From: Psammoneis japonica | Taxonomy: Eukaryota | Reading direction: 5' to 3' | DNA length: 64,000 nucleotides | Assembly: GCA_008632985.1 (NCBI GenBank) | Contig: QPGO01000040.1 | Location: 315,719-379,718, forward strand | Part shown: positions 42,726 to 64,000 of the stretch, one piece after another | Layout of the letters: each line of letters begins with the position of its first letter | Position numbering within the stretch: the first letter of the stretch is position 1 | Translations under genes and position numbers: made by a program | Notes under the pieces: model-generated | What the model was told of the DNA's origin: nothing | Seen by the model: only the letters and a program-made list of their open reading frames with translations | Database searches by the model: none

Positions 42726-43385
42726 TGCCTCCACCATGTCAAATGGACCACCCTTGACTCACAGCTCACAGCAACCAAACCATCCACAGCTTCTGCTTTG
42801 TTGCATTTCTCTCAAAAAGAATGCCAGTTCCAACTGGTGCCATGCATGGTGGAAACTGTTTCATTCAAAGCAGTTGCATCACATCCATCAGCACCTGAGT
42901 GGCCCCTCTTGCACTTCTCATTGGGAGACTCACAATGTCCAGCAGTTTTGTTTTGTCTTCAAGTCCATCTTGTGCTCCTTTTTCTGCTTGCTTTGAACTG
43001 CTGTGATGACAAAAGCCCTGTTGCATGTTTTCCTCTGCAGCTGTGCTTCTTCCACAGCCATTTCTGCCTGTTTCTCACATTTCTGTTTTTCTTGTTCAGT
43101 GGCTGGCACCTGGCACACTTCTGATTCATGGCTTCTGCACTTCTCTTTTTGATGAAGCAAGAGAGCAGAGAGTCAAATCTGCAGCTTTGTTGGAAGCTTC
43201 AAGCTGTGTGGCAATGAAACAACCAGATGTTCTCATTGCCACTCCATGCTTGTTGCCTGTCTTCACAAAGCACAACATTTGATTGTGGGGGTCACATTGT
43301 TCAGCCACCATTTGTTGAATGCTCCCCCAAGCTGGAGCTGCTGAGTTGCTTCTTTCTGCATGGTGATCCACTGTTTGACACCGCC
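42726..43385 (-). pseudogene. FG-GAP membrane-protein pseudogene, piece 3 (5' end and upstream), paralog of 47,254-47,910
   Basis: cctccaccatgtcaaatggaccacccttgactca / cctccactgcgccgaacggaccgcccttgactca; ttgggagactcacaatgtccag is identical; EKQKCEKQAEMAVEEAQLQR vs EKQKSEKQAETTMEKAQLRR. Confidence 0.9.
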
Positions 43386-45095
43386 CAATGATCCATGATG
43401 TTGTGTCCAGCGCTGGCAGTTGCAAGGAGAACTGCGATGGAAGTCTGTCTGTGCAAAACAGTTTTTGCGCACACTTTTGCACTTTTGTCCGTTCCTGTTG
43501 AGGATGTGAGCAGGAAACTCAAAACTGCGCTGAAGTGGTGATGGGGTCAGCACCTCTGGAAGAAGGTGCAACATCTCCTGCACCTGGTGAAACATCTTCT
43601 GGCAACAGCTGGAAGAAAGTCCACCACACAGGAAATGGAAAAGACCTCACATGCCAAAGTTCTAGAAGCAAAACTCCCACAACTCTTTTGTGGAAACCTG
43701 AAAGTGGTTGAAAGATCACTTGAGCATGTTGTCTGTTGCTTCTTGCATGGACTTTTGCTTTGTGGGCAGGGTTGGAAGTTGCTGGATTCACTGTTTTAAC
43801 ACCCTGCCACTTCCAGCCAGATCCAAAATGCAAACACCCAGCACAGTGGGAACCATTGGATGCTTCTTGACAGGATGGACGGACAAACCAAACTCTGCTG
43901 CTGGAGCAGCTGCCTGGCAGCAGCAGCTAGCAGCTGGAGAGCACCATCCACCAAGAGCAACAAAGTTCATTTCCTTCAAGAGGAGAATGCCCAATTGGCA
44001 TTGGGAGGTTGGCAGATGGCCATGCTGTCATTTGTTGGACCCCTGCCAAGACGAATGACCTTGCCATGAAAAGATTTCGTGTCTGTGTGTTCAAAACCCT
44101 TAAATCAGGTGAGTGAACGTTTTCGGTGGAGCCTAAAATTCTGTTGTTGAATCTATGAATCACTGGCAACAATCCAGTGTGTGCAATTTATTTTTTCAGT
44201 CCTTTGTTTCATGTCTCTCTTGTCCTCACACTGCTGTGAAATTTGTTGGGCAAAGAAGCAAAACACGACACAAAAGGGAGCAAAAGCTCTTGTTCATTGG
44301 TTGTTTTCTGTGAACGAAAACAACTGCAGGCACAAATGAAATGCATGTGTTGGGATGAATGATGACTTTGAACACGTGTAAAAGATTGCAAACTTAATTT
44401 AATCAACAGAGCGCAGAAAGCAAGTTACAAAGAGTTGGTTGCAATCGTTTTCAACGCACCTGACTGTGTTTTGTGATTGGATGTAAGAACAGAGGTTCAC
44501 CAAAGATCACTGGCTGTGGAGAAGGACAACACTTTTTCATTGACCATGAATCCGGTTGCACAAGATGACCGATTGTTGGCCCGCTTGCCAAACGATTGCT
44601 GGTAAAAATTCGAGGAGCTGATGCACATGACGGACGAAGCAAAAGAACAAATTGCAGCATCAAAACATGATGCAGCCAGCGACGAGCTTGACCGATTGTT
44701 GGTGCAATCGACAAGCTCTGAAGGGAGTGTAGATTCCAACGTGGATTGGGAGATGTGGTTCAAGGAAGGGAGGAGGGAACACATAGATGACCCGCACCTC
44801 CGCCGTGACTGCATGGACATGTTTCACATGTTGCAACTTGCAACACTCCAGTGAATGGAGTTCGAATGATGATGAGGACCTCAAGGACCCACCGCTGTAC
44901 TGTATCGTCACTCTAGCTCGCCGTTCCATTCCACTCAAACCCATGCTTCCTCTAAGAACACTGAAACGCGACAGTCCGTGTTGCTCCTGTCTTGCTTTCA
45001 GCGATCTTTCCCGACGGGCTCTTCAAACGCAACAATGGCGACACACCAATGCGTTGATTTGAATAAAAAGGCGGTGACAATAATATGATGAATTT

Positions 45096-47743
45096 CTACT
45101 CATTAAGAGCGAACACATATGCCGATCCTGAATCTCTACCATTGGTAGCACGTCTAAATGCACCAACTCCAACCATGCTTCCGTTGGCTGACAAGGAGAC
45201 CGACCGTCCAAAGCAATCCCATTCAGCCTCGCCATTCAAACGTTCGCCCTGCTGCTTCCATTCCATTGTGTTGGTGTCAAATTGGAAGATAATTACTTGA
45301 CCCACATCTTCAAATCCAGCGACATCATGCCAATTACTGCCTACCGCCAATACCTGACCATTTCCATTCAAAGACACCGAATAACCAAAGTCATCACCCC
45401 CTTGTTGTGTAACAAGGGTTTGACCATGTTGTGTCCAGGTTGACGTTGCACGGTCATAGACGTAAACCAATACCCTCTCGTTGCTTCCTCGTCCGCCTAC
45501 TGCCATGACCAAGCCACTGTCGTCAAGAGAAACAGAAAACCCAAATCTACCATTGACAACTTGTCCAGAGATTGGATCTCCCATTGAATCCCACCTCGAT
45601 GATGACGTATTGTATTCATACACCGAGACCTGGCCAGAATTGCTTCCACTCGAATCATTTCTTTCTGCTCCAACAGCAACAACATTTCCGGAGCTACTCA
45701 TAGAAACGGATGTACCAAAACGATCATCAGCCGCTTGCCTACAAGAGTTTCTCCAAGTTGGCTCCAAGATGAAGTGCCGCGGTTGTATTGAAAGATTTGG
45801 ACCGATCCACACTTTTCACCATTGCTCGTGTCGTCAAAGCGAGCTCCTACAGCAACAATGTCTCCGACACGAGAAAACGACACGTCATAACCAAAGTTAT
45901 CGCCAACTGCTTGTCCAACAATGTCACTGCCAAGTTGCTCCCAACGATTCGTAGTGGAGTTGTGTTCAAATACACGAACATACCCAGAACCGCCTCCGCC
46001 ACTATCATTATCTGCTCCAACTGCAAGTATTGTCCCGTCGCCGTTCAACGACACCGACTCGCCAAACTCGTCGCCATCAGCTTCTCCAATCAAATCTTGT
46101 CCCATGGGTTCCCACTGTTGGGTGGCTTGATGGAATCGAAACACGGAAACATAATTTCCGTCATAGGCGCCCACTGCAATGACACTTCCGTCCAGAGACA
46201 ATGAAACAGAGTCACCGAAATGGTCATAGGGAGCTTTGCCATTGGAGACCTGCCCAACTGCTTTCCATGGCACCCTGGTTTCAACCAAATTGTCAAAGAC
46301 ATATTTTCCAGCAGCCACACCAGCTGCCTTGAGCTCACTCGTATAGGCGGATCTTCTGGCGACAGTATTGAACGGGTCGGTCGCCAATCCTTCGATTGCC
46401 ACCGCACTCTCGGTAGAAGTAGCAGTGTATGTGATGGACTGGCTATAAGTGACTTGTAAAGAATCAGCACCAGCTAAAGCCCGCTCGACTCTTGTGTCTA
46501 ACACCTGCAGCGCGGTTTCCAAGACTTGTACTTCCTTAGAGTCTTGTAACTTACGCAAGTGGCCGCGTTGGCTGTTGTAAACGCCCTCCACGTACTTTTT
46601 GGTCGCCGTTACCCACAAGTCGGATTCTATATCATCAAAGGTTGCATTCACACCAACTAAGCCCATTACTAATCCTGTTGCCATCTTCGTTGTCAAAGGA
46701 GCTCGTGACGTGGGATTTTGTGGCGTACGGGGCGACGAGGGAGTTTCTGCTGTTGCGATGTTGTTCGATAGTAAGACAACTACAATTGCAACAGAAACTC
46801 CAACTACCAAAAGCACAACTCCCAAGGCAATCAAACGACAGAGTTTTCTTGCCCGTACTCCATCGACTGCATCTTTTGCAACCTCTGCTTCCGCGAGAGG
46901 CACTTGGCGAAGACAAGCGTTCTCTTCTCGTAGACGCTCATTCTCGTCCTCAACTGGCTGGGCAAGCTGCGCTTCCACAAGAATAGAGCTAGCATCGCGC
47001 TGCAACGCCGGCCCCGACTCGGATGAGTCAGACATGACTGTAGAGGTATCATCACCCCCGCCACGTCGAACGGACCTCCCACGTCCGACGGCAAAAGCAC
47101 CAACATATTCAGCGCTTTGGGAACCTTCATGTTCATTCATGACATAACTTCCGAACTGAGCTTCGTCGAGCAAAGTGCCGCCATCAAGGGCAGGTAAGGG
47201 GATGGGATATGACAGATCTGTGTCCAATTCCGAGATGCATGTAAAGGCATCGTCGCCTCCACTGCGCCGAACGGACCGCCCTTGACTCAAAGCAACCGCA
47301 CCAAGAGGCGTTGGTTCAATGTTTTGGTATAGGTTAACACTGTCCTCAGCTTCTTCTTCGTGGTGTTTTTCGCGAAAAGACTGCCAATTCCGACTGTGGC
47401 GCGTTTCTGAAACTGCTTCATCCAGAGTAGTGGTATCATGTCCATCTGCACCTGAACGGCCTTTCTTGCGGTCCTTATTGGGAGACTCACAATGTCCAGT
47501 AGATACGTGTTCATCTTCAAATCTATCGTGGGCTCCTTCCTTTTCTCGCTTTAAACTTTTGTGATGACGAGAGCGACGTTTCTCTTTGCGTTTTTCCCTC
47601 CGTAGCTGTGCTTTCTCCATGGTCGTTTCTGCCTGTTTTTCGGATTTCTGCTTTTCTCGTTCATGCATCCTTTCACCACTGCCAGTGCACTTCTGATTCA
47701 TGTCTTCTCTACTTCTTTTTCCTTGTTGAAAGCTGTACGGCAA
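45096..47743 (-). CDS. Single-pass membrane protein with extracellular FG-GAP (integrin-alpha-like beta-propeller) repeats; one 1-nt frameshift at ~45,737
   Basis: Charged N-terminus, TM segment LIALGVVLLVVGVSVAIVVVLL, then ~7 FGxSVS(L/M)...xxAVGA repeats across ORFs 45698-47743 and 45096-45812. Confidence 0.85.
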
Positions 47744-48229
47744 TGAGGCAGCCAGATGTTCTCATGTGCGTTTTGTTGCTTGTTGCCTATCTTCACGAAG
47801 CACTATTTGGTTGCGGGGTCACATTGTTGAATTGCGATTTGTCGAATACCATGCTGGGAAGCTGCCGAATTGATTGTCTCTATGCAAAGTGATCCACTAT
47901 TCGATACTACGTTTTGGCATGACTCGACGACTCGGTATGCAACACCACGCATATTTCTGTTGTTTCATCAAAGATGATCAATGTAGTAGGGCCTAACGAG
48001 TGAAGCGTCGCAAGCGTCGCAAGCGTCATGGTCGGTCCGAGTGTGGGAAGTGTGGGCGGTGGGCGTGTGTGCTCTTTTTCATGTCCGGATGGATGGACGG
48101 ACGGACAAATCTGCTTGAACGTTTTTTTTTTTATTTTGGGCGGGAAATCTCGTTTACGACCCAGATCTCATCGACACCAAAGGAAATTCGCACAACAGAG
48201 TGGCAGCGTCAATGAAGAAAACTAGCGTT

Positions 48230-50866
48230 CTAGTTTACAGGGGAAACATGATATGCAAATGCCGATCCTGCCCTGAAGCTCTCAATGTTGCTTTCCTTTG
48301 CGCCAACTCCGACCACGCTTCCGTTCGCTGATAAGGACACGGAAGATCCAAATTCATCACGCTGAGCCTCTCCGTTCAAAGGTTCACCCACCTGCTTCCA
48401 TTCCATTGTGTTGGTGTCGAATTGGAAGATTACTACTTGACCGACATCTGCCAGTCCATCGAGGTCATGCCAATAGCTTCCTACAGCCACGGCATTTCCG
48501 TTTCCACTTAATGACACCGAGCGACCAAATTTATCCCCTTGTTGTTGTGTTTCTAAAGTTTGACCACGCTGTTTCCAGGTCGACGTTGTACGGTCATAAC
48601 TGAAGATCATAACTCTCTCGCCGCTTCGTGGGGCACCCACCGCCATGATTAAACCGCTGTCGTCAAGAGAGACGGAGCGTCCAAACCAACCACCGCTGAC
48701 TTGTCCATTGATTGGGTTACCCATTGGAGCCCATAAGGATAGAGTAGAGTTGTATTCATACACTAACACCTGACCAGCATCATCTCCACCCGAATCGTTG
48801 AAAGTAGCTCCCATCCCAACAATGTTTCCCGAGCTGCTCAAGGAAACAGACATCCCTAAGCGATCATCGGCCGCTAGACCATCTAGTGTCTGTCCAAGCT
48901 GCTCCCATGACGATACGCCGTAGTTATACTTTAACAGTCGAACCGATCCGGATTTGACGCCCGTGTCGGTGTCAGCCCAGCGAGAACCAACGGCAAGAAT
49001 GTCACCCGAATCCGAGAGAGAAACAGAGAAACCAAACCTGCCCCCAGCTACTTCTCCATCTATTCTTCTGCCACGTTTCCTCCAACGTTCCGCGGTTACA
49101 TTATATTCAAAAATTTGAACATAGCCATCATCGACGTCAATGCCAGGAACTCCAACAGCTAGTATTGTGCCGTTGCCGTTCAATGACACTGAAGTACCAA
49201 ATAGACCCCGGTCACTCTTCCAACTAAATCTTTCCCCATTGGTACCCACGTCTGCTTGTCTTGATTCAATTGATACACGGAAACATAATCTCCTGCGCTT
49301 GCTCCAACTGCCATGACACTACCGTCCCGAGACAAGGAGACAGTGTTGCCAAAACAGTCACCAGAAGCATTACCACTCAAGGCTTGTCCGACTGCCTGCC
49401 AAGGACCGTCTGGAGCGTACCACCCATAGTCGGAGCTGCTGCAGCAGGCACTTCAGTCGGTTGTAACGAGGGGCTTTGTGTCGGCGCAGATGAATTAGTC
49501 AAGTTTCCTGTTGGTAGTAGCGTAGCTGGATTCATGGTGGATGGTTCCACGGTAGGAGTAGAGTTTCCTGGAGATGGTTCCACGGTAGGGGTAGAGTTTC
49601 CTGGAGATGGTTCCGCAGTAGGGGTAGAGTTTCCTGGAGACGGCTGTGTTGAATTCTGCATTGAAGTCAGAAGCAGTTCATTGGCTGCGACCAAATTGTC
49701 AAAAATAGAATTTTCCGCCGCCCTTCCAGCTTCCTTCAGTTCATTGGTGTAGGCCGATCTTCTGGCGGCTGTCTTGAACGGTTCAGCGACCAAAGTGTCA
49801 ATTGTAACTTCGCTGTTTCCGGAATTGTATATGACTGCCTGATTGTAAGTAACCACTAGAGATTCAGCACCAGCCATGTCTTGCTCAACTCTTGTACCAG
49901 TCACCTCCAGGAAGGTTTCCACGTCTTGTACCTCGAGGACTTTCTGCAAATTACGCAGATACCGGCGACGACTGCTGTAAAATTCCTCCACATAATCCTT
50001 GGTCGCAGCTACCCACAAGACAGACTCAGGAGCAGAAAAGGTGTTATTAACACCGACCAAACCCATTTCCAACCCGGTTGCCATCTTCGTAGTCACAGGT
50101 AGATTTGGGGGTACTGTGGAAGGAGGCGATGTTGGCATTTGTGTTGGACTTGGTGTCGTGCTGGTTACCTCTGTTGACTCAGGAGATAGTATAAGAACTG
50201 CAACTGCCACGATAGCTGCAACCACCAAAAGCACAGCTCCAACAGTAAGGATAAAACAACGATTTCGTTGCCACCATGTTTTGACGGAACCTCCTGGAGT
50301 CTCCACTGCAGCAATCGATGTTTCATTCTGTGCAGGATGTGTTTCAGAGAACATAGAAGAAGCATCGCCCCCCATCAACAATATGGGATCCGGCTGACGA
50401 ACATCATGCTCCAAATCAGAGCTGGTGGAAGATGTATCATCACCTGGTGGAATGCTCTGCTTGTCCGCAGCCGTCTCTTCCTCTTGTGCTCCTCGTGAAA
50501 AGAATGACGAAGTTGAACGTCGCTCGATTCGGAAGCGGAACTCTTCATATCTGCATCGTATTCATTCCATTGTGCTGCAGCCTTCTTCCAGGATTCTTTT
50601 CTTGTCGAACTACTTAGACGTCGAGAACGACGTTCCGATCTTTTCCTATCGGGAGACGATCGATATTCTGGTACTTGTTCGTCTTCAAATGCTTCTTCAG
50701 AGTCTTTTTTAAAACCATATATAGATCCATCTCTTTTAACCCAGTCTCCGACTGATTCTTTATCTTCCCTCTTTCTAACACTGGAATGACGAGAGCGACG
50801 TTTGCTCTTCTTCTTGCGTGGATGCGCATCTTGCATAATTGCTTCATCCCTGTAGTCACCTTTCAT
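48230..50866 (-). CDS. Tandem paralogous FG-GAP repeat membrane protein with a Pro/Ser/Thr stalk; about three apparent frameshifts
   Basis: Overlapping ORFs 50375-50866, 49377-50414, 49180-49380 and 48230-49249. TM segment FILTVGAVLLVVAAIVAVAVLIL, shared TTKMATGL.MGLVGVN motif, and FGxSVSL repeats. Confidence 0.8.
49540..49645 (-). repeat. Coding 33 bp tandem repeat (PSPGNSTPT[AV]E x3)
   Basis: gtagagtttcctggaga occurs three times at 33 bp spacing. Confidence 0.9.
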
Positions 50867-51886
50867 GATTGTTGTAAGTGCACAAGAGTACAGTCAACAA
50901 CGTCGCCGAATGGTGGGTTAAAGAGACAAGGATACTGCGCTACTTGTTTGGCGTGGTGTGTTTGCTGAGAAGAAGGTCTTCGGGCTCTTCGCTCTCTGTT
51001 GGCTCTTCGACAACTTTTTCAAAATTTTGTTTTTGTGGGCAGTCTTGTCATCTGTAGACGCTACATAAGCTGATACCAGAATAGCAAACCGTAGGATGTA
51101 CGGGATTGTAAAGTATGACGAAAAATCATAAGAGGAATTAGTCCCGAGTTTGAATTGACCTTAAGTACTCATTTGTTGTTCATAACATTGGTGGCGTTTT
51201 GGACGAGCACACGCACAAAACGAACCGAAAGATTGATGGAAGCGAACTTTTTCGTCGCGGCTTGCTCACGCGTTGTACCGTAGCAAGGACGACGGTTGAT
51301 ACTGTAGTGTCGGCAGCCTCTCGCTCTACTTACTAAGCTACCAGCCAGCTACTTCTACTCTCCAGAGAGCGAGCTACTAGCTCTAGCTACTAGGAGAGAG
51401 GTGGTGTCTCTGGCACACCCACCGGAGCAGCGCAGTTGTTCTCAGGTTGCAGCCTGGCCATCAATCAATCTTTCAAACTCGCTTTGCCCCACAAGCTATA
51501 TGACTGGTAGCAACGCGGAAAAGGAGGAGCCAGAGTCCGTCTGACTAAATTGTCTATAATTTGTAATAAAGAGGGGAATGAGGATGCTGGACGGTTGACC
51601 GCATCAGCTCGATTCCACTTGCCACCCAACAGGCTCGGATCGTCCAATTGCTTTCCAATCCTTAAGGCTCCACAGTACTGTCAAATGCAGCTTGGTAAGA
51701 AATGGAAGAATGCCAGTGTTGCTTCTCCTTCTCGTTGTCAGTTTCTGGTCCTTTGTTGACACAACGGCGCAAGACCTAGCAGCTTCATCGTATGCGTAAT
51801 GTGGCGTTTTCCCCGGGTCGATTCTCCCGCCAGGAATATTGTGTCCTCAGGCTCGACAAGAACATCCTCTGGAACCGAGCCGCTTA

Positions 51887-53663
51887 CTATTTCAAAGTCC
51901 GTGGCAACCTGCGAATCACCGCCATTTTCGTTTTCGTCTCCTCCTCCGATGAATTTGACTCTTCCACGCGTTCTTGAACTGCGTTCAAAAGCTTCGCCTC
52001 CATTCTTTCCAGCCTCTCTTCGAACGGAACGTCTGTGTCGTCATATTCAAACTCTTCATCCACCTCGCTATCTGAAGGATTGGAATCGCCATCATCGCCC
52101 ATGGCTTTCAGTATCTGATCCATGCTTTCTAACCTTGCCTCAAATGACATAATCTCAGCCTGAGAAAGCCTCTTGGCATGAACAACGCGTCCATTTGCAT
52201 CTACTTCGCCCTCTACTGGCTTCTCCGAGACATCTGAGGTAGTAAACGCAAGACTAAGAGAGACTGTCGTGTCCGTATCTGCCTCGTGCTTCTTTATCCA
52301 CGGAAGTTCTAAAGCTTCAAGAGCTGTAGGCCGCTTTTGGGGGCTCATCTGTAACAAGGTCCACACAAAATCCTTGGCATCCATTGAAACATTGTCCCAG
52401 GGACCTCCCTCCATTGGCTTGTAGTGGCATCGCAATATCTGATCAATCATGACCTTTTCACGTTCCTTCCACCCCAAATCATCATTCGGACCCCAAAACG
52501 GCGGGTCTCCCGGGCATAGGAGCATGTACGCAATAACGCCAACTGTGTAGAAGTGGCATAAAATTGTAAGCACGTGGCTAGAGGGAATCTACATAGTACT
52601 CTAGAAAAGAACAACTTGATCCTACTTACCACTCCAAATGTCGCACTTGTAATCATACACGCCTTGCAAGACCTGCGCAAAAGAGAAAGCAGCCCAGATC
52701 AATGAGAAAGACAGAGCAGCATATACGGAAAAAAGGAGCAAATTCATCGCACGAACCTGAGGAGCCGTCGAGTAAAGAGTTCCCACTTTGTCTGACAAGG
52801 GTTGGCCACTCAGATACCGAGTGGATAGTCCGAAATCTATTACTTTAATCTCGGCATCATTCCCTGGTTTCTGTATTACAAAGCACATTATGTGAGCAGC
52901 AAAATCCACGGCCTATTATTTAGGAACAATCCGCCATGCGCCAACTTACATCGAAAAGCACATTCTCCATCTTCAAATCACTGTTGACCAAGAACAAAAG
53001 GTATTATGTGAGGCTAGATGCAATCATCAAAAACACAAAATCCTCACATTCCAGCGACTTACCGATGAACAATTTGATTCTTGTGCATGTAAGCACGGCA
53101 GAGAGCACTTTGCGCACAATCACTGCGGCTTGAAGCTCATCCACTTGGCACTCACGGAGAGTCCCGCCTGAACAATACTCCATCACTAGATAAATATGTT
53201 TTTTGCGTTCATACGCTTCGTAGACCTTGGCCACATTAGGATGCTTAAGGTGACTCATAATTTTGATTTCATTCCTCATTTCTTTCAGATACAGCTTGTG
53301 AACCTTGTTGCTGTGCTTGGATTTGATAATGCTCTTTAGGGCATACAGCTTTTCACCTTCCTGCGGCTTTCGCTTGGAAGCCAGGCTCATAATGTCAATC
53401 TGCTCCTTATAAGGGACGCTGATGCGTCTGGGGCGTCTTCGAACCAAATGGATGCTGGAGATACTTCCTTCGCCAATTTCCTCCACCGGTTCCCAGTATT
53501 CGAGAGCACTCGTCTTCATGTGATACTTGAACTGTTCGCTGTCTCCATCTTCGTCGTCGAGCGACATGTAAGAACGAGCGGTCTTCACGGAAACATTCTT
53601 TTTAGGCACTGGGGCCGTCTTTTTGGGTGATTCCACATGGCTAGTGGATTGACAGCCGCCCAT
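51887..53663 (-). CDS. CAMK/CDPK-like Ser/Thr protein kinase with a predicted N-myristoylation start (MGGCQS); 5 exons
   Basis: IGEGSIS, YALK, HR|DLKMENVLF, IDFGLS, VGTLYSTAPQ|V, CDIWS|VGVIAYMLL, RPTALEAL, with four GT-AG introns between ~52,540 and 53,062. One 1-nt slip near 53,095. Confidence 0.9.
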
Positions 53664-54502
53664 GGTGGTCGTTTGTTTATTTTTTTGCAAAACAAAGTGA
53701 CAGTGCGAAAAGTATCGGCATCAAATTCCAAAACTCTCCGACGCAAAACGGAAGTGGCGAGCGATCACGATGAAGCGGCGGCGATGACGTAGTTGTCGAC
53801 ACGTTCATTTCGCTTTATACATGTACATAAGTATACATATCATCAGATGAAAGCCAGACTCATACGTGTCGACCGTTAACGGACGTTACAAGACAAATCG
53901 CCCAATCAGCGAGTGCGCGGAGTGCGTGGGTTGACAGACGACGCATACGACTGTAGTAAGTCTAAAGTCGAGTTAGTCGGCAAAGTTGAAAGGCGACAGC
54001 ATCGTCCCTTTCTAAAAAGTAACATTAGCACGTACCGTACAGTACTGTAGGGCCCTAGCTAGAGAGTTGACTCACTCTCTATCGCTCTGGATCTTCTGAA
54101 TAGAAAGTAGAGAGTCTCTTTTGGACCTACTAGCTCCAATATTATGAATAAAAGCTTCCTGAACTAAACTTCTCACAAGCTACCAGTACTTCTTCTACGA
54201 GAGGCCAATTCCACCCTTGCTGTTAATAAGAGTCAGGATTCTCCGCAGTTCGAATCTTCGTATGAGTGAAGTTCACTACGTACCTCTATTCGTAGTTTGT
54301 ACAGTACGAAATGAGTAAGTAGAATGAAAAATGAAAAGGAATGTGTGAAAGTGGTTATAAAAGCAGTTTATGGCTTCGATGCCTAGCTCTAGTGCCGAAA
54401 GACAAATAGCAATCCCCGGCATTTTCCCCTCCCCATCAAGGCGAACTCGAGATGAAAGGTAGCAAACATTCCATTTAAAAAGGTGAATGCGACTAGAGAT
54501 TC

Positions 54503-55320
54503 TCATCTCGAATCTTCGCTCTCTTGTTGCTGTGCATCTTCGTCGTCCAACAGCAAAGGGCACGCTTCTTCTCCCGGCCATATTTTGTGAGGCATTGTTT
54601 TGGAACGAATCTTGCGTCCTCCAAACCAGTTTCCAAACAAGAATGAGTTTTCTCCCGAACGAATGGCGCTAGCAATCTTGTTGTCCTTTGCATTTTCCTC
54701 TCCGCTGCACAATGGCAAGGTATGCACCGTCAACATGCCGTGCAAGTTTCCAAACACAACATCCGTCAAGAGACGGTCACCCACCATACATAGCTCATGC
54801 GCATTCTCCAACTGAAAATGTCTCAGTACTTCATCTAATCCACCAGGCTTTTTTTCATCGTGTCGAATGACAGCAATCCCCATGGCATTTTCAATCCTGA
54901 TCGCGTCCTTGTAGTCCGGATCATCCTTTGTTCCGGCCGAGTTGCTTAGAATAGCCACGTTTTCTCGACCAAACACTTGCAACGCATTAGCAAGCCCCGG
55001 TGATGCCAGTGGATGTGTTATCGTTTCATAAGGGCAGTTAATGTATTGTCTTTATCAAACACTACAGCTCGTATCCCGCACTTGTCGCGCATCGCTGCAT
55101 AATTCAATTCTGTCGTCGTAGAAAACAAGAATAGTTTGAGGCAGAGGGGTTGAAAAGACAGACATCACCCACTCCAAGTAACTATAGCCCTACGAGACTT
55201 CTTTGTACGGGCAGACTCACCGGAAATATTGCTGACATGAACGTGCGGGGACATGAGATATGGTCTTCGCACCACAGATGCCAAGGTCATGAGGGCCTTG
55301 GTATTGAGTGACTGCACCAT
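54503..55320 (-). CDS. GEP4: Phosphatidylglycerophosphatase GEP4-like HAD phosphatase; intron 55,110-55,220
   Basis: MVQSLN..., AVVFDKDNTLTAPY, ILSNSAG, KKPG, MVGDRLLTDVVFGN. One C is missing in a C run near 55,033. Confidence 0.85.
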
Positions 55321-55688
55321 GGCAATCTAACAACACCACCTGCCAACTTTTGGTGCCCTTGGATTCCTTCTTGTGATAGTTTGGTTCCTTCTCTGCTCGC
55401 GTCGCTGCCTGTATGTACTGCCGCCGCCATGGGCGCAGAGCGAGCGCAATACCAGAATGATGAGCAAAACGAGTGGAACTACCTACAGTAGTACTTGTAC
55501 GACCAGCTACATGCAGTAGGTCAATACGGAAACGTACGTAGCGTTGGAGGGAGTTCGCAGGAAACGAACAGCAAAAATTTCAAAAATAAATGAGCGCAAC
55601 ATGGTATCTTCAGACAGACGCACAATACAGACGCAGGTCGGTTCAGAGTTGAACTTGGCTCAGAGCTTTTGACACTTGTGAGTTGACC
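55321..55688. promoter_or_regulatory. Probable bidirectional promoter between the GEP4-like and TMCO1-like genes
   Basis: Head-to-head start codons ~370 bp apart. Confidence 0.5.
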
Positions 55689-56356
55689 ATGACGGCCCAT
55701 GATATTTTTCGTATTGGAATGACTGTTGCTGTAGCGCAGTTGGTATGTGACTTATTCTTTAACTATGTTCTCTTTTCGAAAGAAGGATATAAACGAGCGG
55801 TTGCCAACCTGAAACGAGCGCAGACCAAGTTGCAGAAAATGACGACCGCAGAAGCACCGGCAACAAGCAGCAAGCAACGTCCGCCAAGACTCTGGAAAAG
55901 CAAGCCAAAAAACTCCAGCGTGCACAAGACGATGTGGCAGAAGCCTCGTCAGATGTTGCGAGGCGACACATGGGGCCCACATTCTACACCAGCTTGGTGT
56001 TTCTGCTGATGCACCGCATTCTGGGAACCGAGTATAAAGGAAAGGTGATTGCGATTTTGCCGTTTGTTCCGTTCAAGCTTTTGCGGCGCTTGACTCAATG
56101 GGGTGGTTTAAGAGAGCAGTTAGCCGACGTACAGGATTGGTCGTCTGGGGAGGTTACTGACGTCAATCAGGCGTGTGGGTTTCTGTTTGTGTACATTATC
56201 TGCTCCCTGAGTGTCAAGTTTGTGATTCATCAAGTCGTTGGAACTCCGCCTCCAAAAGGTGCCGACAAGGGAGTCATGTCGATTATGGAATCCCCAAAGA
56301 ATCAACGATTTTTGAAAGCGGTTGGTGTTGATATGGATGAGTTGAAGAATCAATAA
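55689..56356 (+). CDS. TMCO1: TMCO1-like (DUF106/EMC3-TMCO1 family) ER membrane protein; 1-nt slip near 55,890
   Basis: TM segment, coiled coil, then GKVIAILPFVPF...ACGFLFVYIICSLSVK...VGTPPP (compare TMCO1 GxVVAKLPF.P...DCSFIFLYILC). Confidence 0.75.
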
Positions 56357-56699
56357 AAAAGCGTGTCATAGGATGAATTAGATACTACTCTTGTTGAGCT
56401 AGACAAGGTCGTCTTAGGGTTGCCCATATCTGCAATTTCTGCATATGCATACTAACCTAATTGAGATCTCCAAAGATACCTTTTTATCGTTATACCCTAT
56501 TGTGTGAATACCAGAATACTTCACGACAAAAAGAATACTCTGGCAACGTCCCCGTGAATGCCAGGTTGTATAATATGATCCCCATGATCCCCCCACCACA
56601 TACCCAAATAAGACACGTCACGGTGTTCTTCTATCCCAATACGAAGCCGACGCGCCCCTACAATACATGCCTCCTCCCGTTTTGCTGGACAATAAGAGT

Positions 56700-58050
56700 G
56701 CCTATGGCAATTTCCCCGTAGATGCCATAATGCGCCACCTCATTCCCAATGCCAGCTTGAACATATGACCCCCCCTTTGTTCGTTCCGTCCAGCACGCCC
56801 CAGCCCCTTACGGAGACGCAAGAAGAAGGTGTGTGTTGTCGTCTTCCACGAGACGAACACCATTGTTGTGGCGTTCTTCACACTCGTGGGCATTGGCTGC
56901 AATTGCCTCAATGTAGGATTTAGTGTCTCCAACTTCAAAGGCTGTCTTTTGGATCTTGAGGACTACCACCCCTCCAGGGAAAAGATCCTCGTCTGTTGAA
57001 TGCTTGTACCCCATGAGCTCTCTCTTGAGAATCTTGGACTGAGATTTGTCTTCCACAGGAATCGCGACAACGTGGAATGACCCTACCTTGAATGCTTCTC
57101 CAAGCGACATCTGTTGGCCGGGTTGGAGCTGCTGACACAGCCCTTTTAGAATCGCATCACTTGCGAGTTTCACGGCGGGTTCAGGAATGTCCACGACAAC
57201 AAGTTCCGGTTGATCACGAAGGTGAAAACCCATGCTGCAACAGAAGGCAAGCGAGTCACCTTCGTCACACACTGGGCGAAACTGCAAAGGACAATGTCGC
57301 ACGTCTGAAAGTCTTTTTTCGAGTCACTGGACATCCAGCACAAGGAAATGGCAGTGAGGGTGACTGCGATTGACAATCCCCTTGGCACATTCAGCCGCCA
57401 TGCGAGCTTTGTCCAACTGCAAGGTGTGGAAGAAACCCTGAATGACGTTGCACCATCCGAGCGCAAAGGAAGGATCACAATCGATGGTGCGCTTTGCGTC
57501 AAGCAGGACCACATCCCATTCTGGAAGGAGTTTGTAAGCTGCACTTCGGCTGTGAAAGAAATTGTGATCAAACCCATTCAACTCAATTGCTTGAGTGTAG
57601 AATCAATGGCTTGGACAACCAGCTGTGGATCGGGATTGTTTGGACTCTGCTTGCAAGCAGCCTGTTTGGTCTTTAGTCCCTTTTCGTTGAGAGCGTTGGC
57701 TTTCTTGTTCTCTCGCCGAGGATCTCCACTGCTGGCACTGCGGTGCATGCGTTCCAACCGGTCATGCTCCTCTTGCTCCCAGTCATGGTGGGCTGGAGGA
57801 TGAGATGCAAGTGGTTGCACTGTCGAGAGCTTTGCAACTCTGCAAAACTGACGGCAGACTTTCTTGTGATGAGGCCAATCCTGAGTTTGGCAGTCGCGAG
57901 AGCAATGCACAATTGCTTTGCAGCGGGAGCAGACCCGCAATTTTGAGGTCTCGTTCTCCTCCATGCCGCAAATGGAACAGCGATGCTTGACAGATTTGGG
58001 TGAGTCTGACAACATGATGGTGTCGCACGAGAGGCTTGCTGCTTGGGCAA
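56700..58050 (-). pseudogene. zf-MYND protein with a DUF4262-like C-terminal region; degenerate
   Basis: CSICG...LRVCSRCKAIVHCSRDCQTQDWPHHKKVC is a MYND finger (YCS->HCS). AFCCSMGF...QPELVVVDIP resembles DUF4262. Contains stops/frameshifts. Confidence 0.7.
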
Positions 58051-58168
58051 ACGCAATGGATGAAAATGGCGCTGAACGCATCGCATGTTTCGTCATCAAG
58101 GTGCGGCATGTCGCAAGTCACAACTCGCGGTGTCGCGGTCAGCGGTCAGTCGTCGCATGGCCCTGCTT

Positions 58169-58242
58169 GTGCACACGAACCACCTGGTGGTCCGTGTGCA
58201 TTTTTGGGTGCACACGAACCACCTGGTGGTTCGTGTGCACCC
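58169..58242. repeat. Two tandem palindromes; the second is perfect (18 bp arms, 1 nt spacer)
   Basis: gggtgcacacgaaccacc-t-ggtggttcgtgtgcaccc at 58,206-58,242, with a near-identical copy at 58,169-58,200. Confidence 0.9.
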
Positions 58243-58319
58243 TGCGCAAAATGCTGCGTAGATTTGCACCGAACAAATCTGAGTGCAGCAAATCCGACGC
58301 AGGATCTGCGTGTTTGCAC

Positions 58320-58514
58320 CACTCAACACTTGTCCACCAAGCCGGCAGTCTGTGCCGGCCGTCGTGACAAATGTTTTGTGTCCGAGAAAGAGTTCGTCAG
58401 GGCCGGCGAACAACACCCCACTACGATGCGACTGGCACAAAATGTGCGCAAATGCACAGGAACCAGCATGTGGTTTGTGTGCAAATTGGAGCTCGTGAAA
58501 AATGAGCAGGGACA
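58320..58514 (+). repeat. Dispersed ~190 bp repeat, copy 2 (see 31,879-32,073)
   Basis: Direct sequence match. Confidence 0.9.
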
Positions 58515-58624
58515 GTTGCGGGATGATTGAAACTCGCAAAACAGGTGAAAAATCTAAAAAATGGGAAAATCGCAGAAACACCGAAAAACGTCAAAAACAC
58601 ACATCGTTTTCATCGTCGTAGCTC

Positions 58625-59030
58625 AGAGCTCACAAGACCTCTGGTCATGGGCGTGGTTGGGTCAGTGCCCTGGCTTCATCTCACACTTGGCCACTTGTGC
58701 AGTTCATCTGGAACTGTCTGCAAATTAAAGTCCAACATCAAAAATTAATCAGCAGAACTGCACTTGACTGTCTGCTCTCATTCCTGCGTTCAATGCCATC
58801 GTGATCAGATGGAACATTGTTCTTGTTCGTCCGTTCAGTCATGAGCTGTCATCTCAGACATCGATGTCTCTCAGATCATGACAACAGTCTTGTTTGAATG
58901 ACCCTGGCGAGTCTGCAGAGCATCCTGGAGCTGACTCAAAGCCCTCACGTTTCACACACAGAGGGACGAAGCCCGGGCTTGCAATCGTTTCTGCCATCAC
59001 AGCCACCTTTGCATTTGCCAAGTTTTTCTG
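58625..59030 (-). pseudogene. Degenerate copy of the 3' end and downstream region of the frustulin-like gene (62,868-63,300)
   Basis: GFESAPGCSADSPGSFKQDCCHDLRDIDV vs intact GFESVPGCSADSPGSFKNDYCYDPRDIDV. Confidence 0.92.
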
Positions 59031-59850
59031 TGCACCAGATCCCCAGTGCCAGGTGTTCAATGTGATCACCCCACACCCAAACAGGACACAGCAGGGTGTT
59101 TTTCAATCACATTGCGAAGGTGACGCACCCCAACAATGAACGCTTCTTTCTGTCACTCTGACAGCAAGAACGTCCATGGCAACGTCCCCGTGAATGCCAT
59201 GATGTGGCAGCTGATCCCAATGCCAGCTGGGGCACAAGCCCCCCCCCCTCTTTTGTTTGTTCCATGCACTGCATGCCAGCCTTCTGCTGCAGTGATGCAA
59301 CAAAAAGAAGGTGTGTGTTGTCATCTTCCATGAGATGAGCACCATCATTGCAGCGTTCTTTGCACACTCGATGTGGGACCCAGTGTCTCCAACTTCAAAG
59401 GCTGTTGTTTGAATCTTGAGGACTGCACTCAACCCAGGTGAAAGCTTCTCGTCTGTCGAGTGCTTGTGACCCATGAGCTCTCTCTTGAGAATCTTGGACT
59501 GAGACTCATCTTCCACAGGAATTGTGACAACGTGGAATGATCCCACCTGAGTGCTTCTCCAAGCAACATCTTTTGTTGGCCGGGTTTGAGCTGCTGACAT
59601 GGACCTTTTAGAATTGCATCACTTGCGAGTTTCGCGGCGGGTTCGGGAATGTCCGCAACAACAAAAAGTTCTGGTTGACTGCAAAGGCAAAAACCTGTGC
59701 AGCAGCAGAAGACAAGCAAGTCACTGTGTCCAATCAGAAAGGAAGGATCACACTCAATGTTGCACACAGTGTCAGCAGGACTGATCAAGCTGCGCACTGG
59801 TTGTGAAAGAATCTGCGACCAAAACAATTCAACTCAATTGCTCGAATGCA
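59030..59850 (-). pseudogene. More degenerate second copy of 56,540-57,600 (DUF4262-like region)
   Basis: ccatgagctctctcttgagaatcttggactgaga is identical in both; KRELMGHKHSTDE vs KRELMGYKHSTDE. Confidence 0.9.
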
Positions 59851-61077
59851 GAAGCTGCCTTGGAAATGGACTGGCTTTGCGTGCACATCCCAAATCAACA
59901 GCTGGCAATTTTCGCTGACCAGCCCAATCATGCTGGGGTCGCGACATTGCCAACCCATGTCTTCGACAACATCTGTGTGTCCAGAGTGCCACCAGGAGGA
60001 GCCTTGCAGCTGCTGTTCTTGGCAGTTGCAGAAACATCAAACAAACAGAGCTTGGCATCTTCTGTGCTCCATTCATGAGCCATCCCTCATCATGTTGAGA
60101 CCACACCACACCACATCCTTCCCTCGAATGTCCCACACAGACACCCTGTGGACAAAATGGAGAATCGTTGTGTGTTCCTTGGGAGAAGAGACGGGTGTCG
60201 ACAAAGTGGTTCTGCGGCATGTGCCGTGCACGATTGACTTCACCCCAAATGCTTGACCACCAATCTTGCTTTCTTTTCTTCGTCACAGTGTGCGGCCGGA
60301 TTCGTCACAGCCGCAGAGTTGCAGTTGGAGAACATCAATCACCGCATCTTCGCGCGACAAATTGATGCTGGCCGCCATGAGACAATTCTACTCTCCCATT
60401 GTGTGCAATCCCAACAAGAGCAAGTGCTCATCGACGCGAGGCAATTGCCTCATCACGTGCAACCACTGACAAGTCAGCGACGGCCATTCCAATGCGTGTG
60501 TCATGACAAAGTCGCAAATGGTGGCTGTTGCTGTTGGCAGACAGAAATGGCGTGCGGCCGTTATTTACGTCTTGGAAAAATAGCGTGCGGCCGTTATATT
60601 TGGTACATCTTGGCGTAGAAAATCATGTATGTGAAAAATCACATGGAACTTGGTAGTGACAATGCTGATACTCATTTTACGTTGATAGTTGCGTACAACG
60701 TTGGAGGGAGTTCGCAAGAAACGAACAGCGAAAATGTCAAAGCAATCACAAGAAAATTTGAGGAAAGAGAAAAGTACGATGCGGTCCTGCGGGAGTCATG
60801 TCCGGTTTTACTTGTACCGTCAACGAAACGTTGGCTTTTGAATATAAGTATCAGTGTTGGCTTTCTCGCATTTATATGAGAACGCCTGTTGCTATCGACA
60901 AAAGACTTAGAAATGTGTCCCGCAAGGCATCTCACACACAACCAGACATGGCCCGGCGCACGGTCGTTGGTCGTTGGAGTAACTGTTTGAAATCGTCCCC
61001 GTTTTTTTGTATCAATACGTTCACTTTGAGCGAGTGCTTTGCTCTCACAATCCGTTTCCAAGGGAATAACAACAACA

Positions 61078-62312
61078 ATGGACGACGACGACGATCCTTC
61101 CAACCGAATCCTCGCCGCAATGGAGCGCGCAACGGGATGGTCAAAGTCGCGGCTCCGCCGTCACGTTTCCTATGAACAAGAACACGATAACTACGTCAAT
61201 GCAACAGATTTAAGTCTGATAGATTGTCACGCTTTGGTTAAACTCCCGCGTGAAATTGGCCTGTTGCATCAACTTGTTGAATTGAGAGTGTCGTCCGACA
61301 AACTCAAGCGGGTCCCTCGTGAAATCGGACAGCTGAAGCGACTTGAATTTTTGTCTGTATTTTACTGCCGGAAAATCATTGCATTCCCCGATGAAGTCTG
61401 TGAACTGAGAAGCTTGACGGGGCTAAATTTGTTTGGTTGCACGGCTCTCAAAAGTTTGCCAGCGGGAATTGGGCAGCTGAAACAACTCAAATTCCTTTGC
61501 CTTTCGTCTTGTTCAAGTCTCACAGAGTTGCCAGTGGGAATTGGACAGCTGCAGCAGTTGGAAGACTTAATCTCCAATGGTGCAGCAAACTCAAAGAATT
61601 GCCAGATCAAGTGTGGCAGTTGACAAACTTGGCGGGGCTGAATTTGCATGGTTGCGGCTCCCTCACTGCGTTGTCCCCCAAGATCGGACAGTTGCAGCAG
61701 CTTAAGAGACTCGATCTTCAAGATTGCTGGGAGCTCACAAAACTCCCAATTGAGATTGGGACACTGTCACAGCTGCAAGTATTAATACTTGACAGCAGCT
61801 CCAGTGGCTTGGATGAATTCTTGCGAGTCGCCGTGTGCAATTTGGTCAATCTAACGAGGTTAGATATCACAAGATCTGATGAGATGCCTTCCAAGATGGG
61901 ATGGCTTACAAAGTTGCCTCCCAAGATGGGATTGCTCAAAAAATTGGAGCATCTGGATCTGTCTGACTGCGAGCAGCTGAAGTTCATTCCAAAGGAAATC
62001 CTTGAGCTGCCGAGTCTTTACTATCTCAACTTGGAGGGTTGTTCGTCGCTTTCAATCACTCCCAAGGACATTGGAGAAGTTTCGTATTCTATTCAACATG
62101 TGGACATGCCGACATATGATGAGGAGACGTTTGGCGAAATGCGGTGCTACATCCGAATGAACGAAGCAGGAAGACACTTGCTGCATCGCCACGATGTGCC
62201 TCCAGCTCTTTGGCCGCATGTCTTGGCAGGTCCGCGCAGCGATGAGAACTTTATTTTGTGGTTCTTGATGAACAATCCGGACTTTGTCAAGAAAGGAGAA
62301 AGCAAGGAATAA
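61078..62312 (+). CDS. Leucine-rich repeat protein; 1-nt slip near 61,567
   Basis: Repeats of LxxLPxEIGxLxxLxxLxLxxC across ORFs 61039-61623 and 61437-62312; C-terminal NEAGRHLL...PPALWPHVL. Confidence 0.88.
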
Positions 62313-62487
62313 GTGTTATGAGTAGCCAGTGACAGTTCTTAGGTAAATGTAGCTAGATGTACAAGTGTTAGGTTACTATCTGATTATTATCTATTTTGGT
62401 ACTTACTGCTAGTTCGGATGTCATTCAGATTATAGCAATTCTGGTGCATCCGTGAAGGCTCAGAATACTTGATGGAATACGGTACCC

Positions 62488-62685
62488 GGTATGGACAGAA
62501 CGGGACAACAGGAAGTCGAGACTCGATACCCGGTATGGACAGAACGGGACAACAGGAAGTCGAGACTCGATATCTGGTATGGACAGAACGGGACAACAGG
62601 ACGTCGAGACTCGACATCCTACTTGTTGGAATACGGTACACAGTATGGGCAGAACGGGACAATAGGACGTCGAGACTCGATACCA
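62488..62685 (+). repeat. Minisatellite: four copies of a ~44 bp unit
   Basis: gtatgg(a/g)cagaacgggacaa(c/t)agga(a/c)gtcgagactcga occurs at ~62,488, 62,532, 62,576 and 62,643. Confidence 0.92.
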
Positions 62686-63131
62686 TATTACAGTTTATTG
62701 CTCATTCTTAATGTGTTTCTCTCGGTATACGCATGATGGCACCGATACCACTCTAGCCAGCCTGATATTATGATGAAAATTTCTTGATTGTATCTGCTTA
62801 TAGCTCGATCTCAATCTTCATAGGATACTACGACAGCTACCGTCTTCGCTTGATGACGATGACAAAAAGCTCACAATACCTCTGGTCATGGGCGTCGTTC
62901 GGCCAGTGCCTTTGCTTCGCATCTGGCGTGCCAAAAGGAGCATTTCTTCCTTGTACATCCATTCGTCTTAAACTATCTACAAAATGGAAGTCCAACGTCG
63001 AAAAATAATCAATAATCTGAAGAACTACGATCGAATATATCTGCTCTTTATCCTACGTTCAATGCCTAAGTCTATCATCTTAACAATCTTAACTCGAAGA
63101 ATTTTCACCTATTTAGTCCTGAACTATCGTC

Positions 63132-64000
63132 TTAGACATCAATATCCCTCGGATCATAACAATAGTCGTTTTTGAACGACCCTGGCGAGTCTGCAGAGCA
63201 TCCTGGAACTGACTCAAAGCCATCACGTTTCATACACAGAAGCCCAGGCTTGCAATCGTTTCTGCCGTCACAGTCACCTTCGCATTTGCCAAGTTTTTCT
63301 AAGGGATTCTCTCCGACATCGTTGTACATGGGCTTACCATCGGTGCCATACTGTGTGGGCTTTCTTTCGTAGACAATTTTTTCGGGATCGAAGCAATAAT
63401 CTGTTGTTGCTGTTCCTCTTCCGGCACAACCCGGCACAGCTTCCATGCCGTCACGAATCATGCACCGCATTTTGCCTTCACAATCTTTGTTGCTGTCACA
63501 GTCGCCTTGGCATTCACCCAAAATAACATTTTTGTCATCAGAAACATCCGCGAGCATTGGTAGTGGAGTTGGAGCGGGAGTCGGAGAAGGAGTCGGACAG
63601 GTGATGATGTGGCAAAACCACTGCTTTCTACATTTGCTCTTGGGTGAGCCTCCGAAGCATCCCTTCCTCTCACATTTGTTGCAAGCGGCCCTCTCACACT
63701 CTTCAAAGTTAGGGTCATCTCCGCAAGGGTGTGGAGGAGGGGCAATCGCAGCGCAACCATAGTATTCACACCTCTTGCAGTCCAAGGTGTCGCTGTTGGC
63801 ATCGCAACCAGCGCACTTCTTTTCTTTACAAGCCCGCTTTTTGCACAATGGTTCAACTGTGGCGCAACCGAAACGCTTGCATCTGGTTTCATCGCCGGTG
63901 AGCCCAAAACAGTCCTCCCGCTCACACTTTCCGCACTGGAGTGGCTTACAAAACACATCGGAACACCCTAGTTCCTCGTTACAGATATCGGGGATGGGAA
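63132..64000 (-). CDS. Frustulin-like Cys-rich cell-wall protein (partial; 5' end beyond the window)
   Basis: Two acidic cysteine-rich domains with the frustulin signature C-[EQ]-G-D-C-D (LGECQGDCDSNKDC, LGKCEGDCDGRNDC...VPGC...DYC), preceded by a PTPSPTPAPTP linker. Confidence 0.8.
   Translation of the reverse strand, partial: PIPDICNEELGCSDVFCKPLQCGKCEREDCFGLTGDETRCKRFGCATVEPLCKKRACKEKKCAGCDANSDTLDCKRCEYYGCAAIAPPPHPCGDDPNFEECERAACNKCERKGCFGGSPKSKCRKQWFCHIITCPTPSPTPAPTPLPMLADVSDDKNVILGECQGDCDSNKDCEGKMRCMIRDGMEAVPGCAGRGTATTDYCFDPEKIVYERKPTQYGTDGKPMYNDVGENPLEKLGKCEGDCDGRNDCKPGLLCMKRDGFESVPGCSADSPGSFKNDYCYDPRDIDV

Follow-up and report, generated by a model that had tools for sequence, protein, structure and literature searches.

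TpA-free blocks in a 64-kb window of a diatom genome and a decayed copy of a frustulin-like gene end

The frustulin-like gene end and its copy

The DNA analysed here is a stretch of 64,000 nucleotides from the diatom Psammoneis japonica (GenBank assembly GCA_008632985.1, contig QPGO01000040.1, positions 315,719 to 379,718 of the forward strand), referred to below as the window. Near its right end lies the terminal part of a frustulin-like gene, and some distance before it a dead copy of the same segment from which nearly every TA dinucleotide (TpA) has been removed. This copy is situated in one of three blocks of DNA which are themselves almost free of TA. The window is eukaryotic: the GEP4-type phosphatase encoded at 54,506-55,051 gave 540 matches, the best with 73-75% identity, and those bearing a name were all from diatoms. 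The features on which the analysis first relies are the following.

58,627-59,029, minus strand: dead copy of the frustulin gene end, covering the last ACR domain with its stop codon and ~260 bp of 3' flank; TA erased, CG partly erased
62,868-63,300, minus strand: source segment, comprising the last part of the intact frustulin-like gene and its 3' flank; TA-normal, stop codon at 63,132-63,134
63,132-63,998, minus strand: frustulin-like open reading frame (ORF) of 288 codons, open at the window end, with two ACR-type domains and a Pro-rich linker
57,150-60,550: TA-free block around the frustulin copy, 11 TA in 3.4 kb; right edge at ~60,560 sharp
6,001-21,980: large TA-free block holding a Harbinger-type remnant and an FG-GAP fragment; right edge at ~21,990 sharp
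25,800-44,100: large TA-free block holding two FG-GAP fragments

When the window was compared with itself by BLAST, the copy and the source segment aligned in the same orientation over 442 columns with 73.5% identity (E 3.9e-70). The copy is truncated on its 5' side and a 7-bp insertion breaks its frame. Indels and many substitutions outside TA and CG likewise set it apart from the gene. It represents a duplicate of the 3' end of the frustulin-like gene next to it, present as a single copy and no longer functional.

A preliminary description of this DNA had claimed that in one part of the pair every TA of the gene had become CA or TG in the copy, that CG had changed as well, and that the intact gene fixes the ancestral state. 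In that part (63,130-63,300 against 58,852-59,029) the alignment of both segments holds 17 substitutions, five at TA, five at CG and seven elsewhere. All of the TA changes described are present (cttaga to ctcaga, atatc to atgtc, cataac to catgac, aatagt to aacagt and catacac to cacacac), and a position-by-position classification confirmed that they account for every TA of the stretch, 5/5, each having become CA or TG. The CG changes named (cgga to caga, aacga to aatga, ccgt to ccat and tcgc to ttgc) were found too, together with one CG to CT transversion, so that five of eight CG were changed and three kept. The intact gene ends in translation as CMKRDGFESVPGCSADSPGSFKNDYCYDPRDIDV followed by the stop and the copy as CVKREGFESAPGCSADSPGSFKQDCCHDLRDIDV followed by the stop; alignment and translations alike bear out the change from DYCYD to DCCHD (DYCYDPRDIDV-stop in the gene, DCCHDLRDIDV-stop in the copy) and that of the stop codon from TAA to TGA.

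Over the whole pair, the BLAST alignment has 18 of 19 aligned TA changed (9 to TG and 4 to CA) and 14 of 19 CG changed (7 to CA and 4 to TG), while other dinucleotides were changed at 6-60%. At the background per-site divergence of 0.163, the chance of at least 18 of 19 TA being changed is 5e-9. A global alignment with MAFFT covered 23 TA, of which 14 had become TG or CA, one had become CG, one was kept and seven showed other changes. Counted per site, TA sites were changed at 27/47 as against 35/183 for other A/T sites (odds ratio 5.7, p = 6e-7), and CG sites at 15/40 as against 17/136 for other G/C sites (odds 4.2-fold, p = 8e-4). A per-site divergence at TA no higher than at other dinucleotides, which the preliminary description had named as the result that would speak against it, was therefore not found. 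That about half of the TA sites have changed is what one hit per dinucleotide would give, as TG and CA are no longer targets. When the comparison was read in reverse, from the copy to the intact segment, TA and CG sites were changed no more than other sites.

The TA-free copy is also present in sequencing reads. A contig assembled by another assembler from reads of run X1 spans 58,483-59,499 at depth 55, where single-copy genes have 44-69, and it differs from the window by three letters and two indels, none of which restores a TA; positions 58,675-60,008 were likewise at single-copy depth (55-61). Since the contig reproduces the TA-free copy at single-copy depth, an assembly error is excluded. 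The stretch is covered by three runs, all of one sample; as this is possibly the sample behind the window assembly, they are not independent biological support. There are 149 differences between X1 and the window, and among the 40 listed, 29 fall in the TA-normal DNA at 44,001-57,100; seven of these 29 have TA in the window and CA or TG in X1, and one differs in the opposite sense. A double change from CA to TG was seen in one contig at 59,767-59,768, within the TA-free block. Reads of run X2 cover some of the genes, with an intron-like skip at 55,109-55,221; none lie over 57,341-60,008 and the frustulin-like gene is barely covered.

Frustulin ACR domains are defined in the literature by the hexapeptide motifs CQGDCD and VPGCSG (PMC4712521). 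Both motifs are present in the two domains of the ORF, the upstream one reading ECQGDCD...VPGCAG...DYCFDP and the last one KCEGDCD...VPGCSA...DYCYDP, and the Pro-rich linker reads CPTPSPTPAPTPLP. As that source puts it, a frustulin has at least three of five features, these being a presequence and ACR, Pro-rich, poly-Gly and Trp-rich domains (PMC4712521); ACR and Pro-rich domains were seen in the ORF, neither a Trp-rich nor a poly-Gly domain was seen, and the N-terminus lies outside the window. No family was matched by the ORF in a Pfam search. It has 13 homologues with at most 42% identity, one of them named, from Thalassiosira, and on these grounds the label "frustulin-like" appears a fair one. 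Between this gene and a leucine-rich repeat gene, a short array of units of ~55-65 bp (GGTATGGACAGAACGGGACAACAGGA...) was noticed by eye and apparently repeats over 62,466-62,684; the only pair of units detected by search was 62,466-62,530 against 62,620-62,684, with 91% identity.

Source-copy pairs and the direction of change

The frustulin pair is one of five in which a TA-erased segment can be set beside a TA-normal source in the window. The further features concerned are these.

45,793-47,907, minus strand: intact FG-GAP repeat gene, TA-normal, reference for three TA-erased fragments
48.2-50.5 kb: FG-GAP paralog, used as outgroup
19,768-20,329: TA-erased FG-GAP copy fragment, within the block at 6,001-21,980
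32,813-33,627 and 42,783-43,381: TA-erased FG-GAP copy fragments, within the block at 25,800-44,100
59,067-59,724, minus strand: TA-erased copy of 56,594-57,259, 37 bp from the frustulin copy

When the five pairs were pooled, 97 TA of the sources corresponded in the copies to 74 TG or CA, one CG, three TA kept and 19 other changes, and all five copies together retain just 5 TA in aligned columns. TG and CA arose from TA at similar frequency (31 and 43, binomial p = 0.20), which indicates that both strands were affected alike. The excess at TA over other A/T sites was found in each of the five pairs (odds ratios 4.7-9.5, p from 1.4e-4 to 9e-8), with about half of the TA sites changed as against 13-19% of other A/T sites. 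In the pair formed by 59,067-59,724 and its source, 15 of 18 TA had become TG or CA and one was kept, and the paired ORFs show changes of tyrosine to histidine. For CG, the pooled sources had 153, of which 111 had become TG or CA and 19 were kept. As a control, two TA-normal paralogs (at 45.1 kb and 48.3 kb, 69% identity) were compared; they hold 34 and 44 TA, with no one-way flow. Double changes between CA and TG, an excess of which is expected from two-step paths through TA or CG, made up 34/430 as against 114/2,184 for other double changes, a modest difference (odds ratio 1.56, p = 0.039).

A pairwise alignment by itself gives no direction of change, and this was taken from four other lines of evidence. 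The first is provided by the family motifs. The homologues follow the pattern C-x-G-D-C-D ... V-P-G-C ... D-Y-C-[YFV] (8 of the 13, by eye); the gene's own upstream ACR domain shares them, the intact last ACR domain keeps these family residues and the copy has CKGGCD, APGC and DCCH in their place, the ACR domains of copy and homologues having been compared by eye and not by a scripted domain-by-domain count. Secondly, the copy is a truncated, frameshifted fragment and its source a gene with an open frame. Thirdly, an outgroup test was conducted on the FG-GAP pairs with the paralog at 48.9-50.3 kb, which assigned 91 changes to the copy lineage and 45 to that of the gene. The changes in TA context (13) and in CG context (22) fell without exception on the copy lineage, the zero on the gene lineage being partly built in, as context there is read from the TA-free copy.

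The fourth line comes from another of the TA-free blocks, where the remnant of a Harbinger-type transposase (14,780-16,069; E 1e-20 to Pfam Plant_tran) lacks tyrosine throughout its 430 residues. At positions where its homologues have tyrosine, it has cysteine or histidine in 6 of 11 cases (P0136) and 5 of 9 cases (P0137), by eye, and this gives the direction independent support. Together the four lines support the view that the TA and CG changes ran from source to copy and took place on the copy lineage, in agreement with the preliminary description as to the ancestral state.

The three TA-erased FG-GAP fragments match consecutive parts of the intact gene in order and orientation. They seem to derive from a single old paralog interrupted by two insertions, of ~12 kb and ~9 kb, in which case the TA-free region would be an insertion nest in a dead gene copy. 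Near the frustulin-like gene a different arrangement was noted: 37 bp past the copy of its end lie copies of 56,594-57,259 and 57,456-57,615, the whole set spanning 58,627-59,864, and the junction is as expected from an old tandem duplication, the unit of which would have run from position ~56.6 kb to 63.3 kb. Of this proposed duplication, the two redundant halves on the inside are those covered by the TA-free block. Retroposition was considered as the origin of the frustulin copy and rejected, since the copy shows no sign of poly(A) at 58,627 and adjoins a second local duplicate.

TA-free blocks and the effect of flanking bases

The window holds 999 TA, which are very unevenly distributed. 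The three TA-free blocks amount to 37,682 bp, ~59% of the window, with rho values of 0.06 for TA, 0.41 for CG and 1.72 for CA/TG, and contain TA-free runs of up to 1,735 bp. In the normal (gene) blocks, 19,203 bp in all, the corresponding values are 0.60, 0.91 and 1.18. GC content is nearly equal between the two types of block (0.482 vs 0.474). In this window the TA-free blocks measure 3.4-18 kb and their edges are sharp to 100 bp at three boundaries, ~21,990, 57,150 and 60,560; at ~21,990 there are 0-1 TA per 100 bp before the edge and 10 after it, and ~60,560 is similar. The transition at 25,500-25,800 is more gradual.

Non-coding DNA of the normal blocks is rich in TA, with 62 TA in 62,001-63,000 and 17 TA in 56,401-56,600; the 1-kb windows of 62,001-64,000 have rho TA of 0.84 and 0.53. 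The loss of TA is thus regional and is not shared by all unconstrained DNA. It can also be separated from the loss of CG, as 57,150-58,600 has almost no TA and normal CG (8-18 per 200 bp), CG being low in 58,600-60,200, and as rho CG spans 0.04 to 0.95 among the 1-kb windows with rho TA below 0.12.

Flanking bases have a strong effect on which TA are lost. TA density is 42.1 per kb in the gene blocks (17.8 kb) and 4.0 per kb in the TA-free blocks (37.0 kb), and the tetranucleotides around TA (R, purine; Y, pyrimidine) were distributed as follows.

RTAY: 224 of 750 TA in gene blocks; 1 of 149 TA in TA-free blocks
RTAR and YTAY: 389 in gene blocks; 58 in TA-free blocks
YTAR: 137 in gene blocks; 90 in TA-free blocks

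RTAY has been almost completely erased and YTAR survives in part, a context effect which is new. The TA surviving in the blocks are mostly TTAA, CTAA/TTAG and CTAG, and some of them may have been newly created; ATAT, GTAT/ATAC, GTAC and ATAG/CTAT are essentially gone. Set against 7,960 CA and TG, the blocks hold 149 TA, and for RTAY the figures are 1 and ~1,950. If the blocks are at equilibrium, TA would be destroyed ~53 times faster than it is re-made, and the ratio for RTAY would be of the order of a thousand.

As TAA and TAG are gone from them, the TA-free blocks contain 92 ORFs of at least 130 codons. A Pfam search of these 92 gave only two matches (Plant_tran and zf-MYND), and so a description of the blocks as transposon-rich rests on few pieces; what could be identified in them were host gene fragments and transposon remnants. 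The zf-MYND match is to a 179-codon ORF at 57,581-58,117 (minus strand), with a MYND zinc finger (Pfam E 6e-11) and no tyrosine, lying in TA-free DNA with normal CG. The adjoining ORF at 56,808-57,323 has the TA boundary inside it, at ~57,147, and one gene seems to have been half erased.

A number of other features were observed in or beside the blocks. A high-copy repeat lies at 58,008-58,674 and 31,879-32,076, with a read-contig depth of 1,133 as compared to ~55 elsewhere; its two copies in the window are 87% identical, keep CG at 11 of 12 positions and have almost no TA. An island of TA-normal DNA at 22,000-25,500, with a very sharp left edge at ~21,990, stands within TA-free DNA. A 471-codon ORF inside it resembles a kinase weakly (E 9e-4, short of the Pfam cut-off), and the island may represent either an insertion of younger date or a gene that has been protected. 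At 1-6,706 (minus strand) there is a LINE-like (long interspersed nuclear element) sequence with a YVDD motif, the long ORFs of which are broken by three N gaps and no piece of which was recognised by Pfam. It shows partial loss of TA, at 8.4 TA per kb, with RTAY at 1/37. The N gaps in the scaffold are sized at 370, 959 and 952 bases.

Origin of the blocks and comparison with known systems

The TA-free blocks are probably the product of hypermutation from TpA to TpG or CpA targeted at regions of the chromosome, accompanied by a separate decay of CpG. After the duplication, the frustulin copy would have been mutated in place, along with the whole surrounding 3.4-kb block, by these two processes. 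The first, which replaces A:T by G:C at one or the other base of TpA, has been carried nearly to completion and would most likely be enzymatic editing of DNA at TpA aimed at chromosomal blocks such as silent or repeat chromatin. Editing would probably proceed by deamination of adenine to inosine, which is read as G; the base attacked may be the A, deaminated, or else the T, modified and mispaired. The second process, the loss of CpG, would most simply be deamination of 5-methylcytosine in methylated repeats. The frustulin copy shows that the TA-free footprint arose at its present site, on DNA derived from the host, and did not come in with foreign sequence. The sequence thus demonstrates the duplication, the direction and dinucleotide specificity of the changes, the block structure and the independence of TA loss from CG loss, whereas the action of an enzyme, the base attacked, the mark on the blocks and a role in defence are inferred.

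Several points weigh against this reading. A single-strand model, according to which an A that precedes a pyrimidine is edited and which predicts the changed base in mixed contexts, fits RTAR (19 CA vs 6 TG) and does not fit YTAY (9 vs 9; Fisher p = 0.11). Between the control paralogs, too, TA and CG sites diverge rather more than others (odds ratios 2.3-3.0 and 1.7), which means that part of the excess at these sites is ordinary. No viral domains were found by Pfam among the 92 long ORFs of the blocks, and the targets of comparable mutation in the chlorarachniophyte Bigelowiella natans, considered below, are viral. In 80 environmental contigs around the GEP4 orthologue (440,067 bp), the signature was present in none of 765 1-kb windows, such contigs under-sampling repeats; it is accordingly not general in the gene neighbourhoods sampled, and the process may be lineage-restricted or may be invisible in gene-rich contigs. 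Finally, the evidence as a whole is drawn from one 64-kb window.

Among the other explanations, a process triggered by duplication, akin to the repeat-induced point mutation (RIP) of fungi and detecting homology rather than a state of chromatin, is unlikely, though less so than the rest. All five informative TA-erased segments duplicate sequences elsewhere in the window, the block around the frustulin copy contains the high-copy repeat at 58,008-58,674, and diatom DNMT4 enzymes are described as related to the fungal RID protein (PMC9998398). RIP, however, mutates both copies, and here the partner copies are untouched, the frustulin-like gene and its non-coding 3' flank both keeping their TA. 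The TA-free state also extends well past the duplicated segments, through DNA of single-copy depth (58,675-60,008), and the chemistry is the opposite of that of RIP, which makes TpA from CpA.

It is also possible to do without targeting and to suppose a genome-wide bias against TpA and CpG that becomes visible only where selection is absent, genes keeping their TA through purifying selection. The blocks are indeed mostly non-coding or pseudogenic, the seven listed differences at which X1 has CA or TG for a TA of the window lie in TA-normal DNA, and the mildly raised TA divergence of the control paralogs would fit as well. We nevertheless regard this explanation as improbable, given that intergenic and 3'-flank DNA in normal blocks is rich in TA (rho 0.84 in 62,001-63,000), that block edges are sharp on a scale of 100 bp and that the TA-normal island at 22,000-25,500 stands within TA-free DNA.

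A third explanation places the editing in RNA, as adenosine-to-inosine (A-to-I) editing of double-stranded RNA by an ADAR-like enzyme followed by reverse transcription and insertion. The TpA context fits the preference of ADAR for a 5' U as given in the B. natans preprint (bioRxiv 10.64898/2026.01.13.699255), and the LINE-like element at 1-6,706 has partial loss of TA. This scenario is very doubtful in view of the lack of a poly(A) trace at the end of the frustulin copy beside another local duplicate, the strand symmetry of the changes (31 TG vs 43 CA), and a signature that fills contiguous blocks across unrelated pieces, a DNA-transposon remnant included. ADAR is, moreover, known as an animal family. 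It is scarcely credible that the pattern is a sequencing or assembly artefact, for instance from miscalled modified bases, or that it ran in reverse with genes gaining TA, as another assembler's contig reproduces the TA-free copy at normal depth, copy and gene differ by indels and many other substitutions, the N gaps of the scaffold are sized, and outgroups and family motifs contradict the reverse direction.

A wider proposal can be put forward tentatively, namely that diatoms possess a dedicated genome defence in which silent, repeated or foreign DNA is marked and its TpA enzymatically edited until none is left, with a strong preference for TA between a purine and a pyrimidine. Such a system would be the same as that of Bigelowiella or convergent with it, and would be old and widespread in the stramenopile, alveolate and rhizarian (SAR) group. 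Editing of TpA would remove TAA and TAG stops, tyrosine codons and TATA-like signals. The signature is one that can be searched for, consisting of TA-free, CA/TG-rich blocks without tyrosine codons and with TGA as the only stop, and could be mapped across diatom and SAR genomes. It also matters for annotation, since such blocks yield long spurious ORFs and hide decayed transposons. Any enzyme proposed is constrained by the preference for RTAY, by strand symmetry and by independence from CpG decay. Deaminases of the CDA type that are specific to stramenopiles and carry fused SAM and Tudor domains are on record (PMC3239186) and are candidates only; diatoms being a group with genetic tools, candidate deaminases could be knocked out.

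The CpG half of the pattern resembles the decay of methylated CpG known elsewhere. In Phaeodactylum, CpG methylation of transposons is attributed to DNMT5a (PMC9998398). Here CG became TG or CA at 111 of 153 positions across the five pairs, and depletion is confined to repeat-rich blocks. Decay of 5-methylcytosine explains this half only, as TA is lost without CG in 57,150-58,600.

Unwanted DNA is known to undergo directional hypermutation in fungi (RIP) and in animals (APOBEC). What the blocks have in common with RIP is hypermutation by transitions at particular dinucleotides, by which repeated or foreign DNA in the germ line is inactivated and blocks of skewed dinucleotide composition are left. 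The outcome differs, in that RIP changes C to T, mostly at CpA, and so creates TpA and AT-rich DNA, whereas in the diatom window TpA is destroyed and GC content is unchanged. RIP mutates both duplicates, and the source copy is intact here. Deaminases of the TadA/ADAT2 and ADAR types convert A to I, read as G, in contexts compatible with TpA, their natural substrates being RNA; in tRNA the target, A34, is invariably preceded by U33, and ADAR favours a 5' U.

The closest likeness is to B. natans. According to the preprint of Mettrop et al. (2026), two integrated viral regions of mutation-accumulation lines acquired 231 new mutations, 230 of them A to G or T to C; the GC-biased changes were all on TpA, arose at a rate raised ~1000-fold and occurred in some lines only. 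The genome of this organism also has clusters poor in TpA and rich in CpA and TpG that are enriched in reverse-transcriptase and DDE genes, and deamination of adenine by an ADAT2-like enzyme is proposed there (bioRxiv 10.64898/2026.01.13.699255). A term search of the preprint's main text gave no mention of CpG or of flanking, tri- or tetranucleotide context. No diatom report of TpA hypermutation was found in the literature, most subscription journals lying outside the search, and the 2026 preprint was the sole precedent found.

As in B. natans, the diatom changes are A:T to G:C transitions at TpA, giving TpG or CpA according to strand and confined to discrete regions, and they leave a lasting loss of TpA with a gain of CpA and TpG amid sequences of reverse-transcriptase and DDE types and many genes that cannot be annotated. 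A similar process is proposed because the footprint agrees with the B. natans case, the one in which such mutation has been observed directly, and the diatom blocks would be the long-term end state of editing of this kind. There are also differences. The chlorarachniophyte host is a rhizarian in which the mutation was seen in real time, whereas here a diatom, a stramenopile, is concerned and the process is known from sequence alone. Integrated viral DNA (nucleocytoplasmic large DNA virus, NCLDV, or virophage) is the target in B. natans, and host gene fragments and transposon remnants are what the diatom blocks contain. The diatom blocks add a separable loss of CpG and a strong flanking effect, RTAY being affected far more than YTAR. 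Erasure is also far more complete, with a rho TA of 0.06 over 37.7 kb as compared to 0.45 in the NCLDV region of B. natans. The diatom window adds to the hypermutation described in the B. natans preprint a further instance, which belongs to another major lineage and is far more extreme in degree.

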